Assembly: GCF_000829235.1 (NCBI RefSeq)
Contig: NZ_AP012549.1
Span: forward strand, 2,400,001 to 2,432,000
Direction of reading: 5' to 3'
Length of the DNA: 32,000 nt
Origin: a cyanobacterium endosymbiont of Epithemia turgida isolate EtSB Lake Yunoko
GTDB taxonomy: Bacteria; Cyanobacteriota; Cyanobacteriia; Cyanobacteriales; Microcystaceae
The notes under the pieces were generated by a model. The model was given only the letters and a program-made list of their open reading frames with translations, had not been told where the DNA came from and ran no database searches. A program made the position numbers and the translations under genes. Shown here one piece after another: positions 1,962 to 22,864 of the stretch; the stretch's first letter is position 1; the number at the start of each line of letters is the position of its first letter.

Positions 1962-2691
1962 AGGCATCCTTGTTTAAATCTGTAGATAATGCAAAGTTTT
2001 GAAGCTACTCTGCAACCTAAGTAGTCGGACATAAATGGACAACACTATGCTAACGCGAATTTGACAAGGTTTGAAAATATTTTTATTTTTCTTCTATTTC
2101 GCAGAGTATATTAATAACCGCCATAACCCCATTAACCCAATTTTGTCCCATCGGTAAATTGTTGACTGTCGAGGGAGCCTCTTTTAAATAAATAACAATT
2201 TTTTTCGCCTTTCACCTCATTGCTAATGATCTAATTACATTAACTCTATATTATGTTGTTATAGAAATTTTTTAAACTTCAATTAACTCATATAAATTCT
2301 TCTTTTTACTTTTTTTTAAAAAACACCATTACACTCAAATACAACATTAGTTAATCATAATTTTTATATCTAACTTTCATTAACATAAACTTTGAATTTA
2401 TGGTAATTGATTTTAAATCAATAAGGTATTATAATAGGTTATTAATTTAAACCTCTATTTAGATAAAAAACCTAAATTTTTTTAACAAGATATTGCAATA
2501 TTTTAACATAATTATTGTTTTAAAAAAATAACTTAGGCGGTCAATTCAAATAAAGATTTGTCCTTATGAGATGATAGATAAGGAAAAAAACACTAAACTT
2601 TATAGTAGGCTATAAAACATTGTTGACGTAATTATTATCTAATTAAAAATTATGATCTTACCGTACGTTATATGATAGGGATCAGAACGCA

Positions 2692-2808
2692 ATGAATAGG
2701 CTTAAAGACTATTATTTGCCTGATATAGCTTCTATCAGTGCGGCTGCGGTTGTTAATGCCAATTTTCCTGAAGTTCTAAGACAGGTGAGACTTAGATTAT
2801 TTGAATAG
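2692..2808 (+). pseudogene. apcA: Phycobiliprotein relic (apcA-like, central helix region only)
   Basis: Frame reads ..NAMNRLKDYYLPDIASISAAAVVNANFPEVLRQVRLRLFE*. It aligns with the phycobiliprotein core [28 protein letters not shown]. The chromophore-Cys position is substituted and only about 40 codons remain, with stops on both sides. Confidence 0.5.
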
Positions 2809-2877
2809 GTGTCTTAATTAGTTTTTTCTGAAGTAAATACTTATACTAATCTTTCTTATTCAGCTTTTCTAGAGTAA

Positions 2878-3129
2878 ATAGACTATTCTCTACGCTATGC
2901 TAGTTATGCTTTAGCAGAGGGTGAGTACAATGTTCTTGATAAAGGGATATTGCGAGAGTGGCGCAAAACCTATAACTTCTTGAGAGTTCTCATTATCTCA
3001 AAAATCAAGGAAATCCAAATTATGAAAGACATGGTAAAAACCATAATGGCTGATACTGGGATTAAAGATGTCTCATTTAATAATTTTTTTGCTCACAGAG
3101 CTCTTGATATTAGTGAAATTTCTGTTTAA
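2878..3129 (+). pseudogene. apcB: Allophycocyanin beta-subunit relic (C-terminal half)
   Basis: The frame opens right after a TAA with no start codon. It reads DYSLRYASYALAEGEYNVLDKGILREWRKTYNFLRVLIISKIKEIQIMKDMVKTIMADTGIKDVSFNNFFAHRALDISEISV*. This is collinear with ApcB [76 protein letters not shown]. The N-terminal ~85 codons, including the bilin-binding Cys, are missing. Confidence 0.75.
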
Positions 3130-3183
3130 GTTCGTTGAAAATTAATAAGATTCTTAGAGACGATCACTATTCTTCAGTCAACA

Positions 3184-3309
3184 GTGATTACTTCTCTAAA
3201 TCAAAAAAGATTGTTAGGATGTAGACTTAGTGTAACTAAAATTATTCGAGAAGCACCCAGTTTGGACATAATGAGTATAATACCATCTATGGGAGTTAAA
3301 CTAAAACTA
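3184..3309 (+). pseudogene. apcC: Possible apcC (small core linker) relic read through into clpS
   Basis: The upstream extension of the clpS ORF (NQKRLLGCRLSVTKIIREAPSLDIMSIIPSMGVKLKL) loosely parallels ApcC TQRELQNTYFTKLVPYENWFREQQRIMKMGGKIVKVEL, with internal deletions. Its position after the apcA/apcB relics matches apcABC operon order. Confidence 0.35.
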
Positions 3310-3603
3310 ATGATGGCTGTAGCCTCGGTTACCCCCAAGGGGTCAACCTCAGTTATACGGAATGTTTACCCTAACTATAAAGTTATAGTACTTAATGATA
3401 ATTTCAATACCTTTGAGCATGTTGCTAACTGCTTAATGAAGTATATACCGAACATGACTGGTGATCGTGCTTGGGAACTAACACACCAAGTTCATTCTGA
3501 AGGACAGGCAATTGTCTGGGTCGGTCCTCAAGAGCCTGCCGAACTCTATCACCAGCAGTTACGGCGAGAAGGATTAACTATAGCTCCTTTAGAGGAAGCT
3601 TAA
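3310..3603 (+). CDS. clpS: ATP-dependent Clp protease adaptor ClpS (cyanobacterial ClpS2 type)
   Basis: YPNYKVIVLNDNFNTFEHVANCLMKYIPNMTGDRAWELTHQVHSEGQAIVWVGPQEPAELYHQQLRREGLTIAPLE is a full ClpS core. I prefer the ATG at 3310 (97 aa) to the GTG at 3184 given in the ORF track, because the extension looks like a decayed upstream gene. Confidence 0.9.
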   Translation: MMAVASVTPKGSTSVIRNVYPNYKVIVLNDNFNTFEHVANCLMKYIPNMTGDRAWELTHQVHSEGQAIVWVGPQEPAELYHQQLRREGLTIAPLEEA

Positions 3604-3604
3604 G

Positions 3605-3937
3605 ATGATGAACAAATCTAAAGGACGGCTTGTTTGGAATCATTCAACTCACCTTCAAGGACTGATTCCTATCCTTGAAAAGTTGATTAATTGCACTGGA
3701 ATTACTACGGTTACTCCCGGGGTAATCAGTTGTTCTAAGAGTCACTATCCTTATTTAAAGTTACGGATATCTGTTCCCGTTCGTGGCGGTTATAAGGTGA
3801 TCGCAAGACAAGGAAAAACAGTTCAAGAAGTATTTATCGTTACAAAGTTAAGTCGTCAAGAATTAGAAACTGCTATTAACACAATTATTGAATTAAAGTT
3901 TAATAGAAAAAATAACACTCTTCACATAAGTCGATAA
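3605..3937 (+). CDS. Conserved hypothetical protein, translationally coupled to clpS
   Basis: 110-aa ORF starting 1 nt after the clpS stop. Its composition is gene-like rather than spacer-like. It resembles small conserved cyanobacterial proteins (RLVWNHSTHLQGLIPILEKL..GITTVTPGVI..YLKLRISVPVRGGYKVIARQGKTVQEVFIVT), but I cannot name the family with certainty. Confidence 0.6.
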   Translation: MMNKSKGRLVWNHSTHLQGLIPILEKLINCTGITTVTPGVISCSKSHYPYLKLRISVPVRGGYKVIARQGKTVQEVFIVTKLSRQELETAINTIIELKFNRKNNTLHISR

Positions 3938-11421: not shown

Positions 11422-12604
11422 CAAATATATTATATATAAATAATATCTATAATAAAAAATTAATATTTTTTGAAATTAGTAGAAAATAGAAATTATTAAA
11501 GTACATAATGTTGCTATTGTTTGTTATGACTAAGACAGAGATCAAAGATTTTGCTATTAAAATCCTTAAATTTTTAAAAATTAATAAAACTAGCTTAGAA
11601 TACAAGAATATTACAAGCTAGTTTTAAGAGTAATAGATTCAATATATGAGTAAACTTTTTTTGTCCTACTTATGAGATTTAGTCAACAAGAATATTTGGG
11701 ACTAAAATAGATTGCCTTTAATGTGTAAAGTATATAAAAAATTATTGCTATTGCTAATTTAGACTTAAAAGTAGCTCAGATTATAACTCTTTATAATCTC
11801 TGAATTAACAAATTAAAAACGCAGTTTTTAATAAAATAGACCAGTTGTATTTTAAATTTGATAAAGAAGTTGACATTTGATTACATACTTTAAATATTAC
11901 AGTAATTAATAATTAAGGAAGAAACAATAAAACTTTTAATTAATGGGTTTTAGTATAATCAATGGTATATAGTATGACGCCAAAAGTAAAGGAGGACATT
12001 TTATTAAAAAATCTTCTTAGTTTTATAATTGGATGACATTAGATAAAAATGCAGAAATATATAGAAAAGATAGTTTAAAAGTAGGACCGTGATATTTCTT
12101 TTATATGTTTATATACTTGTCTATGAGCCCATCCTATCTTTATTTTTCAGACTATTAAAGGACTAAGAGATGTGATTTTTATCTCTTTTGTTTATTAGTT
12201 TATAGAAAAAGTTGACTATATATTTTGAGAATCATAAGGAAAAAATCTTGATTCTATTAGATTAATGGTGTTTTTTATTCATATAAAGTATACACCCAGG
12301 CTAATTATAGCTATACATAAAGGGTGATAGTTACTGTTCTTTAAGAACAGATAAATAACAAAATTATTAGTAATAAATTCTCAATAATAATTTTAGATAT
12401 TGAATAGTGTATTTCATAAACTTGAAGTAAAATATATAAATTTTTATCTAGTAAAATTAAGAGAACAACTCGACATTATTAATTAATGACAGAATTTATA
12501 ATCATATTAATAATAGACTTTATAAAATGAGATTGGCAAAAACTCAATAAGCTCAAGAATAAAATATTATTCCCCTATTTCAAGCCTTAGATTGGTTAGA
12601 AGAA

Positions 12605-12636
12605 AAGTAATCTAACTCCTAAGTAATCTAACTCCT
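12605..12636. repeat. Perfect 16-bp tandem duplication
   Basis: AAGTAATCTAACTCCT occurs twice head-to-tail (12605-12620 and 12621-12636) inside a spacer. Confidence 0.9.
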
Positions 12637-13019
12637 GCAACATAATTATACTATCAATTAAATGAAGTAGGCCAGCAATTATTCATTGGCGCTTTTATTT
12701 ATTTTGAATCTGATATGTGTCATTTATTTTGACTATAAAAATACCGTATATTTAAGGATTATAGTTGATGAAGATATGTACGATAGCTACATCAATTTTC
12801 TTTTCTTATATCACTAAAACTCTTGATTTTAAGCACATTAAAAGGTTTTTCATAAAAGTTATAAACCAATCAATATTAAGGAAATTGTACCCATGGTATC
12901 TAAGATTGATTTGACTCAATTCCATAGAAGAAATTATAGACTTATTTTTCTAAAAATATCAATATTATAAACAATTTATCAAATAATCAAGTGAGGAAAA
13001 CTAAAAACAACTGCCTCTA

Positions 13020-13340
13020 TCACCCAATACAATAACAATCCTTAACTTCGTTAGTGTCTACAACCCGTTGAGAATAACTCCACTGTCATACCAAGCAACG
13101 ACTTTAACCATGTCGTTCTCCATTACCATGGTTAAGCTAGAATCAACCATAGAAGAATGATCAGTTACATGATAGTCACAGAAAACTACAAGGGTAAGTC
13201 ATTCTATAAAATAATGCCCTTCATAGAACCCTGAGAAGCTTCTCGCAATACATCATTCACTCCTTCGACAAGGGTACTTTTTTTCTGTATGACTAAGTCC
13301 ACCAATTTATTTTTTTTTTACCGGACAAATTTAGTCATGA
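13020..13340 (-). pseudogene. gap2: Glyceraldehyde-3-phosphate dehydrogenase relic (C-terminal third; weaker traces up to ~13520)
   Basis: Minus-strand fragments: [72 protein letters not shown], then after a frameshift [19 protein letters not shown]. Compare GAPDH VDLVVQVEK.TFAEEVN.VLR.AAEG.LKGILGYT.LPLVS.D..G...SSIVDASLTMVMGGDMVKV.AWYDNEWGYSQRVVDLAE. There is an in-frame TAG and at least one frameshift. The N-terminal half has no room before murC. Confidence 0.85.
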
Positions 13341-13551
13341 ATAGGAAACTTCCAAGATAATAATGACAAAATGTAGAATAAATCTAACTTTAACTCCTTT
13401 TTAGCTATCCTGATTCAGGTAAAAAACAGTACCAAACATCATAATTAATAAAAACACAATTGATGACCAAGTGGTCAGTTTTTGATATCATAGCCCGTAA
13501 TTAATAAGCAACGACGTTTTGTGGTAATCGTGTGGTGTGTTAGGAGATGTA

Positions 13552-15042
13552 ATGGTAAAAACGGTTGATTTTAGTGGACGGCCTTTCCATTTCATCGGAA
13601 TCGGCGGGATAGGGATGTCGGCTTTAGCTTATGTTCTAGCTAAGCGTCAGATTCCCGTATCCGGTTCCGATTTACGATCGAGTCATATTACAAAAAGATT
13701 GCAAGAAGTTGGAGCGTATATTTTTAGTCGTCAAGAGGCGACTAACCTAGAACTCTTTCATTCTAGCAACGGACAAATCACTGAATCTGTCCTACCTTTG
13801 GTCAATAATTTGACAACATCTTTGGTTGATAAAAATGGACATGATCATGAATTGAGTCCGAAAAGGATTTTAACTGAACAGTTACCTCAAGTTATATTTT
13901 CAACAGCGATTGCTCAAGGTAATTCAGAATATCGGGCCGCCCAGGAAAAGGGATGTCCGATTTTCCACCGTTCTGATGTTTTAGCCGCTTTAATTACAGA
14001 TTATCAAAGTATTGCGGTAGCTGGAACTCATGGGAAAACCACTACTAGCAGTCTTTTAGGTTACGTACTGCTCAAGGCAGGACTCGATCCAACTATTATC
14101 GTCGGAGGAGAAGTAGATGCTTGGAAGGGTAACGCTTACTTTGGTTCTAGCAAATACTTAGTAGCTGAAGCAGATGAGTCTGATGGCTCTCTAGTGAAAT
14201 ATTTTCCCAGTATCGGAATTGTCACTAATATTGAACTTGATCACCCGGATCACTATAAAAGTCTAGAAGATGTAGTAAAAACCTTTCAGATTTTTGAAAC
14301 TCAATGTGAAATATTAGTAGGGTGTGTTGACTGTGAGACAGTGAGAACTCAGCTAAACCCGACTATTACCTATAGCCTTGATCTTAATCAAAACGCAGAT
14401 TACATTGTCAAGGAAATTACTTATAGTCTTGAGAACACAACGTTTGAAGTTTGGGAAAGAGGGCAGTTTTTGGGGCAAATGTGCCTAACCATTCCAGGAA
14501 AACATAATGTTAGTAATGCTATGGCTACTATAGCTGTAGGGCTGCAATTGGGATTGGAGTTTAAGATAATTGCTGAGGCATTAGCTACCTTTGGCGGAAC
14601 AAAACGGCGTTTTGAATACCGGGGTCAAACCCATGGTATTACGTTTATTGATGATTACGCTCATCATCCTAGCGAAATCAGAGCTACCCTCTCGGCAGCT
14701 CGTTCTAAGGTTGAGCAAAACTCTCGTGTAGTTGCTGTTTTTCAACCTCATCGTTATAGTCGTACCGCTGCATTTTTAGAAGAATTTACTACTTCTTTTC
14801 AAGATGCGGATTTCATTGTTCTAACCGATATTTACAGTGCAGGGGAAGCTAATGTTGCTAACATCACAAGTCAAGACTTAGCTAATGAGATTAAACGTCA
14901 TCATGGTGATGTGATTTATCAACCCTCTTTAGAAGCTTTAATTGAATCTCTTCCTAAACTTTTGCGACCTGGAGACTTAGTTCTGTTTTTAGGGGCGGGG
15001 AATCTTAATCAAATTATTCCCCAGGTAATTGCTGGGTTTTGA
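13552..15042 (+). CDS. murC: UDP-N-acetylmuramate--L-alanine ligase
   Basis: HFIGIGGIGMSALA Rossmann N-terminus, GTHGKTTTSS P-loop, and Mur ligase middle and C-terminal domains (DDYAHHPSE, FQPHRYSR). I place the start at ATG 13552, which has an AGGAG 5 nt upstream, rather than at the GTG at 13537. Confidence 0.95.
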   Translation: MVKTVDFSGRPFHFIGIGGIGMSALAYVLAKRQIPVSGSDLRSSHITKRLQEVGAYIFSRQEATNLELFHSSNGQITESVLPLVNNLTTSLVDKNGHDHELSPKRILTEQLPQVIFSTAIAQGNSEYRAAQEKGCPIFHRSDVLAALITDYQSIAVAGTHGKTTTSSLLGYVLLKAGLDPTIIVGGEVDAWKGNAYFGSSKYLVAEADESDGSLVKYFPSIGIVTNIELDHPDHYKSLEDVVKTFQIFETQCEILVGCVDCETVRTQLNPTITYSLDLNQNADYIVKEITYSLENTTFEVWERGQFLGQMCLTIPGKHNVSNAMATIAVGLQLGLEFKIIAEALATFGGTKRRFEYRGQTHGITFIDDYAHHPSEIRATLSAARSKVEQNSRVVAVFQPHRYSRTAAFLEEFTTSFQDADFIVLTDIYSAGEANVANITSQDLANEIKRHHGDVIYQPSLEALIESLPKLLRPGDLVLFLGAGNLNQIIPQVIAGF

Positions 15043-15183
15043 AGCATCTTATCACTCTTAGGGGTTCAAGTTTTTTTTGATATTTAGTCTTAACTCTATT
15101 TCTCAGACCCTTGTGTCTGGAAACAATTTGAATAATTTTTAGTTCACCGTCTTCAATTGACTTCCCATTAAACTAATAAACTA

Positions 15184-16110
15184 ATGATTAAAGCGTTGTC
15201 TTCTCCAATACGATTGCCCGTGGCCAATTGTCATATTTTCCCTAATTTTTCTCTAGCTAATCAAACTTCCTATCGCGTAGGAGGTGAAGCTCGATGGTAT
15301 GTTGCTCCCCGTACTTGGGAGGCTCTACAAGCCACCTTTGAATGGTTTCAAAAGCAAGATATTCCTCTGATACTGTTGGGGGCAGGTTCTAATCTTTTGA
15401 TTAGCGATCGCGGAATCGATGGCTTAGTGCTAAGCACCCGCTATCTACGTTATCGTAAATTTGACCCTGAAACAGGGTGTGTTACTGTAGCGGCTGGTGA
15501 CCCTGTAGCTAAAATTGCTTGGCAAGCTGCTAAACATGGTTGGCGCGGCTTGGAATGGGCTGTAGGCATCCCAGGGACTGTGGGAGGAGCAGTGGTAATG
15601 AATGCGGGAGCTCATCGTCAATGTGCTGCTGATTGTTTGATCAGTGCAGTGGTGGTGTCTCCTGATGGCACAGTAGAAACTCTTACATCTAAAGACCTTG
15701 ATTATAGTTACCGCACCTCTTCGTTACAAGGAGCTGAGAAACTTGTTTTAGAAGCCACTTTTCAATTAAAGATGGGGTTCAGTCGTCAAGAAGTCATGAC
15801 AACTACTCAACACAATCTTCAACAACGTAAAAATTCCCAACCTTATGATAAACCCAGTTGTGGGAGTGTGTTTCGTAATCCTACTTCTCATGCTGCGGGA
15901 TGGTTAATTGAACAATTAGGCTTAAAAGGATATCGTATTGGTAACGCAGAAATTTCCCATCGTCATGCTAATTTTATCCTTAACTGTGGTCAAGCTAAAG
16001 CGCAAGATATTTTTCGCCTGATTTATCATGCTCAAGAACAAGTAGAAGCTCGTTGGTCTTTATTACTGGAACCAGAAGTCAAAATATTAGGTGAATTTTC
16101 TGCCTCCTAA
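15184..16110 (+). CDS. murB: UDP-N-acetylenolpyruvoylglucosamine reductase
   Basis: 308-aa ORF with the FAD-binding domain (YRVGGEARWYV, LLGAGSNLLISD, GIPGTVGGAVVMNAGA) and the MurB C-terminal domain (CGSVFRNP, HANFILN). Confidence 0.95.
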   Translation: MIKALSSPIRLPVANCHIFPNFSLANQTSYRVGGEARWYVAPRTWEALQATFEWFQKQDIPLILLGAGSNLLISDRGIDGLVLSTRYLRYRKFDPETGCVTVAAGDPVAKIAWQAAKHGWRGLEWAVGIPGTVGGAVVMNAGAHRQCAADCLISAVVVSPDGTVETLTSKDLDYSYRTSSLQGAEKLVLEATFQLKMGFSRQEVMTTTQHNLQQRKNSQPYDKPSCGSVFRNPTSHAAGWLIEQLGLKGYRIGNAEISHRHANFILNCGQAKAQDIFRLIYHAQEQVEARWSLLLEPEVKILGEFSAS

Positions 16111-22828: not shown

Positions 22829-22864
22829 TATAAAACCCAAAATTTTAAAATTTTGGGTTTTATA
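22829..22864. repeat. Perfect 36-bp palindrome (bidirectional terminator-like)
   Basis: TATAAAACCCAAAATTTT|AAAATTTTGGGTTTTATA, with all 18 pairs checked. The CCC/GGG core with flanking A/T runs gives a hairpin followed by a U-run on both strands. It lies ~190 bp upstream of recN. Confidence 0.9.

Follow-up and report, generated by a model that had tools for sequence, protein, structure and literature searches.

A decaying gap2 remnant beside murC in the spheroid body harboured by the diatom Epithemia turgida

A 32-kb genome stretch from the spheroid body of Epithemia turgida (EtSB) contains what is left of gap2, no longer functional, at the ancestral site of this gene next to murC, where it appears to have been inactivated relatively late and to have been decaying neutrally since. 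We consider this reading about 95% probable, and no evidence contradicting its interpretation as a pseudogene came to light. The spheroid body is a non-photosynthetic, N2-fixing cyanobacterial endosymbiont of the diatom, and gap2 encodes the NAD(P)-dependent phosphorylating glyceraldehyde-3-phosphate dehydrogenase (GAPDH) of cyanobacteria, which serves the Calvin cycle and the gluconeogenic direction. The stretch, hereafter the window, comprises 32,000 nucleotides (positions 2,400,001 to 2,432,000 of contig NZ_AP012549.1), and coordinates refer to it unless a sister locus is named. An earlier reading of the nucleotide letters by themselves (the sequence-only reading) had placed a GAPDH pseudogene at 13020-13540.

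The identity of the remnant follows from protein-level matches that run across its broken frame. Intact Gap2 of Crocosphaera sp. XPORK-15E or Rippkaea orientalis PCC 8801, used as the tblastn query, aligns with the window in three collinear segments lying in three different frames, with a joint E-value of 9e-20 within the window:

13057..13305, minus strand: gap2 coding remnant (NAD(P)-dependent GAPDH, EC 1.2.1.59), based on tblastn, DNA alignments to intact orthologues, NF005641 and PDB 3b1j
13305-13189, minus strand, frame -3: tblastn segment 1, residues 243-282
13189-13082, minus strand, frame -2: tblastn segment 2, residues 282-317
13085-13044, minus strand, frame -1: tblastn segment 3, residues 318-331

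What survives is thus part of the C-terminal domain, about 85 codons corresponding to residues ~243-327 of 338. The peptide reconstructed across the three frames matches the Pfam domain Gp_dh_C (E 1.7e-12), the NCBIfam model NF005641 (E 5.5e-33, model positions 243-331 of 337) and the PDB structure 3b1j, a Synechococcus NADP-GAPDH (E 1.2e-30). By these comparisons, the match is far above chance. Residues 1-242 left no trace in the window, where tblastn at word size 2 and E up to 10 returned chance matches only, and the longest open reading frames (ORFs) covering the relic measure just 30 and 33 aa. The minus-strand peptides quoted in the sequence-only reading are indeed present and the N-terminal half is missing as it had stated, with ~85 surviving codons and not the ~100 it had estimated.

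To place the remnant in its context, sister loci fetched via MurC relatives were compared, and they present gap2 in graded states of preservation:

L083, Rippkaea PCC 8801, free-living: gap2 intact
L082, GCA_002110465.1, presumably free-living (intact neighbour genes, branching outside the spheroid-body clade): gap2 intact
L089, Rhopalodia gibberula spheroid body (RgSB, AP018341): gap2 intact, 338 aa, 2641-3657
L090, a 3.10-Mb ENA assembly: gap2 intact, 338 aa, 2642-3658
L085, sister of L090: first 159 gap2 codons open, at which point the contig ends
L086, 92% MurC identity to the window: gap2 full-length but broken
L088, a JGI metagenome: gap2 relic truncated as in the window

Base-level alignments of the relic with the intact orthologues and the sister pseudogenes yielded the following lesion map, given here in the direction of gap2 transcription:

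13303..13310, minus strand: junction of a ~0.82-kb 5' deletion, from the alignment to L086; identical junction in L088
13284..13285, minus strand: 3-bp in-frame deletion (one Val codon, ~residue 249), common to L088 and not in L086, RgSB or L090
13204..13206, minus strand: in-frame TAG derived from a conserved Tyr codon TAC (~residue 276), common to L088
~13189..13190, minus strand: 2-bp insertion causing the first frameshift, in L088 too (TT instead of TG) and not in L086 or the intact genes
Between 13085 and 13084, minus strand: 4-bp deletion causing the second frameshift, within the WYDNEWGYS motif, from DNA alignments
13057..13062, minus strand: GTAGAC, marking where a ~52-bp 3' deletion closed between two direct repeats of GTAGA, from the alignment with RgSB, L090 and L086
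13011..13056, minus strand: former 3' flank of gap2, non-coding, matching what follows the gap2 stop codon of RgSB, L090 and L086

The larger of the two deletions can be read directly from L086. Window positions 12773-13302 align with L086 1124-1652 and positions 13311-13600 with L086 2479-2768, and because these blocks fall to either side of it, the 826 bp of L086 1653-2478 are missing from the window. With this event gap2 lost codons 1-242 together with its start codon, as well as ~90-100 bp of upstream DNA, part of which is a block whose conservation extends from Crocosphaera to the spheroid bodies. At the other end, the ~52-bp deletion cost the gene its stop codon and the 11 codons before it, along with ~10 nt of the 3' flank. 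The smaller lesions lie between these junctions; the codon that has become TAG is TAC in all intact orthologues and in L086. Relative to the TAG and single frameshift of the sequence-only reading, the stop codon (13206-13204) is there, and the number of frameshifts rises to two (+2 and -4), accompanied by the 3-bp deletion.

The same alignments redraw the borders of the remnant. The peptide tail 'TNEVKDCYCIG', considered as a diverged Gap2 C-terminus, was rejected, being the former 3' flank that the ~52-bp deletion has joined to 'VVD'. The interval 13306-13540 was likewise considered as degraded gap2 and rejected, since its ungapped counterpart in sister genomes is the intergenic DNA between gap2 and murC. 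The originally proposed span of 13020-13540 hence does not hold on its murC side, where positions 13311-13551 are intergenic sequence and not gap2.

Taken together, the reading frame is disrupted and truncated, the start codon and the conserved upstream block are gone, substitutions have accumulated neutrally and the lesions recur in independent data. The remnant beside murC is therefore best read as a pseudogene that could not encode an enzyme, because the cofactor-binding domain, the catalytic Cys and His and the S-loop are gone and only the interrupted residues ~243-327 survive. The substitution pattern points in the same direction. Between the relic and the L086 pseudogene, 17, 13 and 20 differences fall on codon positions 1, 2 and 3 (19.6% in total), and the flanking non-coding 'junk' between the glycosyltransferase gene and gap2 diverges by 18-23%, with murC third positions at 11%. 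Differences that are spread evenly over the codon positions and reach the level of junk DNA argue for neutral evolution without function.

This pattern bears directly on the possibility that the remnant has been kept for a secondary role, whether by encoding a small peptide, by yielding an antisense or regulatory RNA, or by serving neighbouring genes as a spacer or terminator. The remnant overlaps with the short ORFs noted above (30 and 33 aa), and the adjacent interval 13311-13440 has changed more slowly than junk DNA, for a reason that the comparison does not explain; both could be taken to favour such a role. Against this stand the even, neutral-level distribution of substitutions over the codon positions, a further stop codon of L088 that falls inside the 33-aa ORF, the lack of any Rfam match in the window, and the lack of a minus-strand gene within 1.6 kb downstream that would need a terminator. 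As such, we regard retention for a secondary role as very improbable.

Assembly error does not account for the lesions. Across 19,307 bp, the Logan assembly L081, built from run SRR29904087, matches the window at 100% identity, and the contig of L088, which comes from an independent JGI metagenome, is 96.5% identical to the window and carries its 0.82-kb deletion, 3-bp deletion, TAG and +2 insertion together with one further stop. The alternative, that gap2 is in reality intact and that its stop, frameshifts and truncation arose during sequencing or assembly, thus has next to no probability: no positive evidence for it was found, the idea arising only from the general tendency of AT-rich homopolymer runs to attract errors (here, for example, the T-run at 13310-13319), and an identical assembly over 19.3 kb, the same lesions plus an extra stop in L088, and five separate lesions in addition to two deletions of 52 and ~820 bp are not explicable as homopolymer miscalls.

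The sister loci further indicate when the gene was lost. A neighbour-joining tree of murC-murB-ybaB (2,471 ungapped columns) groups EtSB with L088 and these two with L086, followed by RgSB, then by L085 together with L090, and finally by the free-living relatives; bootstrap support for placing L086 with EtSB is 90%. Within this tree, the L086 copy is full-length and carries an 8-bp deletion, insertions of +1 and +2, a 5-bp deletion, two stops and a lost start codon, and no lesion is common to the window and L086 in the 85 codons retained by both. A single inactivation in the common ancestor of EtSB and L086 would fit the tree, and two independent inactivations, one in EtSB and one in L086, may also have produced the present state.

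The intact copies reveal what preceded this loss. For gap2 of RgSB and L090, the ratio of nonsynonymous to synonymous substitutions (dN/dS) is 0.147 at a dS of 0.44, close to the 0.143 of murC for the same pair and about three times the free-living gap2 value of ~0.05; differences between the intact copies at codon positions 1, 2 and 3 number 29, 16 and 80. Intact spheroid-body gap2 is thus still under purifying selection. Between the relic and the intact RgSB gene, second-position divergence is 11.5%, about half of the neutral distance of 22.6%, which suggests that the EtSB copy has been unconstrained since about the split of the EtSB and RgSB lineages. On these comparisons, gap2 was lost once the spheroid-body lineages had begun to separate, and so later than the photosystems, and its loss is lineage-specific and not ancestral to all spheroid bodies. 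The more recent inactivation suggested in the sequence-only reading agrees with this picture, as gap2 is still intact in some spheroid-body lineages without photosynthesis. Because purifying selection (dN/dS 0.147) acts in these non-photosynthetic sister lineages, the loss of gap2 was not a direct consequence of the loss of RuBisCO.

The surviving proteins nonetheless deviate at sites that are usually conserved: RgSB Gap2 has INDISD where its relatives have INDTSD, with Ile replacing the Thr33 of NADP specificity, and likewise PTFTG instead of PTSTG and TAPSKD instead of TAPGKG, and L085 Gap2 reads TALSKG at the TAPGKG site. Selection on gap2 may thus be relaxing ahead of outright inactivation.

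Several lines of evidence support the assignment of the relic to gap2, not gap1, as the sequence-only reading had proposed in naming the NADP-type paralogue. First, among family models the relic scores best with NF005641, a 337-position cyanobacterial equivalog (114.6 bits), versus 83.0 bits for NF005830, at most 71 for the rest and 35 for the E. coli-type model NF011954; the full-length cut-off of NF005641, 616 bits, is out of reach for a fragment and is passed by the intact positional orthologues of RgSB and Rippkaea (685.5 and 733 bits). Second, PDB structures rank in the same sense, with 3b1j (S. elongatus NADP+ GAPDH) at 108.8 bits, chloroplast GapA/B at 85-97, Thermosynechococcus at 87 and the others at 76 or less, the weaker matches being Bacillus, Thermus, E. 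coli and eukaryotic cytosolic GAPDHs; E-values are 1e-30 to 1e-23 for Gap2 and GapA/B and 1e-20 or weaker for all others. The full-length RgSB orthologue reproduces this order at 591 (3b1j), 530, ~503, 429 (Bacillus) and 338 (E. coli) bits. Third, in a search of 5.8 billion proteins, the named top matches of the relic are all 'GAPDH (NAD(P))' or '(NADP+)(phosphorylating)', and the sole match labelled plain 'GAPDH' has 49% identity to it. Finally, in Rippkaea, L082, RgSB and L090, the gene adjacent to murC is intact, encodes 337/338 aa and aligns with the relic at the DNA level.

The position itself is equally telling. A Gap2-like gene stands directly upstream of murC on the opposite strand in 70 of 80 cyanobacterial murC loci (one genome per species; several of the 10 exceptions simply lack upstream sequence), and the 70 genes share 75-89% identity with the Crocosphaera protein. 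The relic occupies this ancestral site, divergent from murC-murB, and the arrangement given in the sequence-only reading for several cyanobacteria is borne out:

13552..15042, plus strand: murC (UDP-N-acetylmuramate--L-alanine ligase), intact, product identical to BAP18381.1 of the Epithemia turgida endosymbiont
15184..16110, plus strand: murB, intact, completing the gap2/murC/murB arrangement

The overall reading has some limits that are best considered together. The determinants of NADP specificity in GapA and Gap2, Thr33 and Ser188 (Bacillus numbering), fall within the deleted codons 1-242, so that the cofactor type of the relic is unreadable; the Rippkaea orthologue has INDTSD and LDASHRDLRRARAA at these motifs, as in GapA. 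Placement in gap2 rests on the rankings of models and structures, on source names and on positional orthology; neither Gap1 nor Gap3 was found among the 90 fetched loci. Our own data cover the 32-kb window; that EtSB has no second intact gap2, and that it has a gap1, is taken from published tables. Derivation of the relic from another GAPDH paralogue (gap1, gap3 or an acquired copy) draws on the first of these points, the deletion of the specificity residues in the N-terminal domain and S-loop, and is nonetheless exceedingly unlikely given the 114.6 bits for NF005641 versus at most 83 for every other GAPDH model, the lead of Gap2 and GapA/B among PDB E-values, top matches named as NAD(P) or NADP+ enzymes with plain 'GAPDH' at 49% only, and a base-for-base alignment to murC-adjacent genes of 337/338 aa, when gap1 of this clade encodes 345 aa and adjoins dapB (PMC12903740).

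In the supplements to Elhai 2026 (BMC Genomics, PMC12903740), Gap2 is listed as present in the endosymbionts of R. gibberula (RgSB, sole entry RGRSB-1341) and E. clementina (EcSB), as 'broken' in those of R. gibba (RaSB) and E. pelagica (EpSB), and as absent ('--') from those of E. turgida (EtSB) and E. adnata (EaSB) and from UCYN-A. According to these tables, every endosymbiont covered has gap1 (EtSB: ETSB-0045) and every rhopalodiacean one GapN (EtSB: ETSB-0167). In the EtSB genome, 225 pseudogenes have been annotated and the G+C content is 33.4%, with rbcL and rbcS pseudogenised (Nakayama & Inagaki 2017, PMC5638926, summarising Nakayama et al. 2014) and chlorophyll-pathway genes also among the pseudogenes (PMC5638926). 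The loss of gap2 itself is hence already on record, and the remnant is an ordinary one among hundreds of EtSB pseudogenes. No description of the EtSB remnant or its deletion boundaries was found in the texts that could be searched, none of whose main texts names both 'gap2' and 'Epithemia'. What is added here is the fine structure, with the ~250-bp EtSB remnant as the end of a graded series.

From these elements, a likely course of events can be outlined. In an endosymbiont fed on host carbon that has kept gap1 and gapN, as the literature indicates, selection on gap2 would have relaxed. The gene would then have been inactivated about the time at which the EtSB and RgSB lineages split, and subsequently worn away under the bias towards deletion that bacterial genomes typically show, by two larger deletions as well as small indels. 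Between the large deletion and murC ~240 bp were spared, and selection on the sequence needed for murC expression probably set this limit.

The DNA that separates the large deletion from murC falls into two parts that differ in conservation:

13311..13551, plus strand: retained part of the gap2-murC intergenic region, 90% identity to L086, ungapped

The murC-proximal part, 13441-13551, is conserved to free-living relatives, diverging by 13-17% from L082 and Rippkaea with a single 1-bp gap. It contains a palindrome, TGACCAAGTGGTCA, at 13464-13477, an extended -10-like element, TGATATCAT, upstream of murC with a promoter-like match at 13463-13491, and an AGGAG ribosome-binding site, as well as an invariant 26-mer, TCAGTTTTTGATATCATAGCCCGTAA, at 13475-13500, which occurs only in 11 of 90 loci, all of the Crocosphaera/Rippkaea/spheroid-body clade. 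This block is probably the promoter and leader of murC, with transcription predicted to start near 13495-13505. A structured RNA was also considered for it and rejected, with an RNAalifold covariation term of 0.03, one compensatory pair of 28 and no Rfam match in the window. The distal part, 13311-13440, is specific to spheroid bodies and unalignable to the free-living relatives (~50% mismatch). It diverges by 7.7% from RgSB and by 13% from L086 without indels, compared with 19-23% and many indels in nearby decayed DNA, and thus evolves more slowly than neutral even where gap2 is dead. On the far side of murC, the murC-murB spacer is ~50 bp shorter in L086 (4211-4301) than in the window (15043-15183), so that indels also accumulate between two essential, co-oriented genes.

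The remainder of the window alternates between genes and decayed sequence. G+C content is ~0.34-0.43 over intact housekeeping genes versus 0.18-0.27 over long ORF-free spacers, and the 32 kb contain only ~17 ORFs of at least 90 aa; the intact genes include glnA, clpS, a CCA/poly(A)-polymerase-like gene, murC, murB, ybaB, a leuA-like gene and a histidine kinase. This alternating G+C content reads as the signature of AT-biased decay of former genes. One such tract, the ~1.6 kb at 11422-13043 between the glycosyltransferase gene and the gap2 relic, has a G+C content of ~0.24 and no ORF, and is homologous across all examined spheroid-body loci (RgSB, L090 and L086). Compared with the genes that flank gap2 in free-living relatives, namely GUN4/pyrH/frr (Rippkaea), methyltransferases (L082) and an ABC permease (Crocosphaera), it gave no match at E<0.01. 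Further along, a near-perfect palindrome of ~36 bp, ATAAAACCCAAAATTTTAAAATTTTGGGTTTTAT, occupies intergenic positions 22829-22864 between lplA-like and recN/SMC-like genes and may act as a bidirectional terminator. The Logan contig L081 ends exactly at this palindrome, which suggests that the hairpin probably breaks short-read assemblies.

The new comparison also raises a question about the role of Gap2 in endosymbionts that no longer photosynthesize. It is conceivable, though we think it rather doubtful, that some diazoplasts keep Gap2 for a function unrelated to photosynthesis, and that losing it in particular lineages signals a divergence in metabolism and is more than a side effect of giving up the Calvin cycle. 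The idea draws on long purifying selection in non-photosynthetic spheroid bodies at a dN/dS like that of murC, and on later separate losses, in the group of Epithemia sensu stricto and L086 and, according to the literature, in E. pelagica. If true, Gap2 might, for instance, act in NADPH-linked gluconeogenesis leading to glycogen or help GapN to keep redox balance, and its loss would be a real metabolic divergence between host-endosymbiont pairs, as for the vitamin B12 pathway. Independently of this idea, a single locus can here be read at four stages, as intact, full-length but broken, truncated and (as reported) absent, with both deletion junctions fixed to within a few bases and one of them lying between 5-bp direct repeats. 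It thereby illustrates in what way, and at what pace, a gene that can be spared is taken apart beside an essential one.

Among known systems, the closest counterpart of the relic is cyanobacterial Gap2 (EC 1.2.1.59; NF005641; 3B1J from Synechococcus elongatus PCC 7942), together with its chloroplast descendants GapA/GapB, these being the best sequence matches of the relic; Gap2 also shares its genomic position next to murC-murB, and the relic differs in keeping only the interrupted residues ~243-327. The gap2 losses of other rhopalodiacean spheroid bodies concern the same gene, the same locus and the same process, broken in L086 and truncated in L088 as in the window, with the difference that no L086 lesion is seen in the window within the region both retain. 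With the photosynthesis pseudogenes of EtSB (PMC5638926), finally, the remnant shares the reductive evolution of a recently host-restricted, non-photosynthetic cyanobacterium, but gap2 was lost later than the photosystems, as it remains intact and under purifying selection in RgSB and in the lineage of L090.

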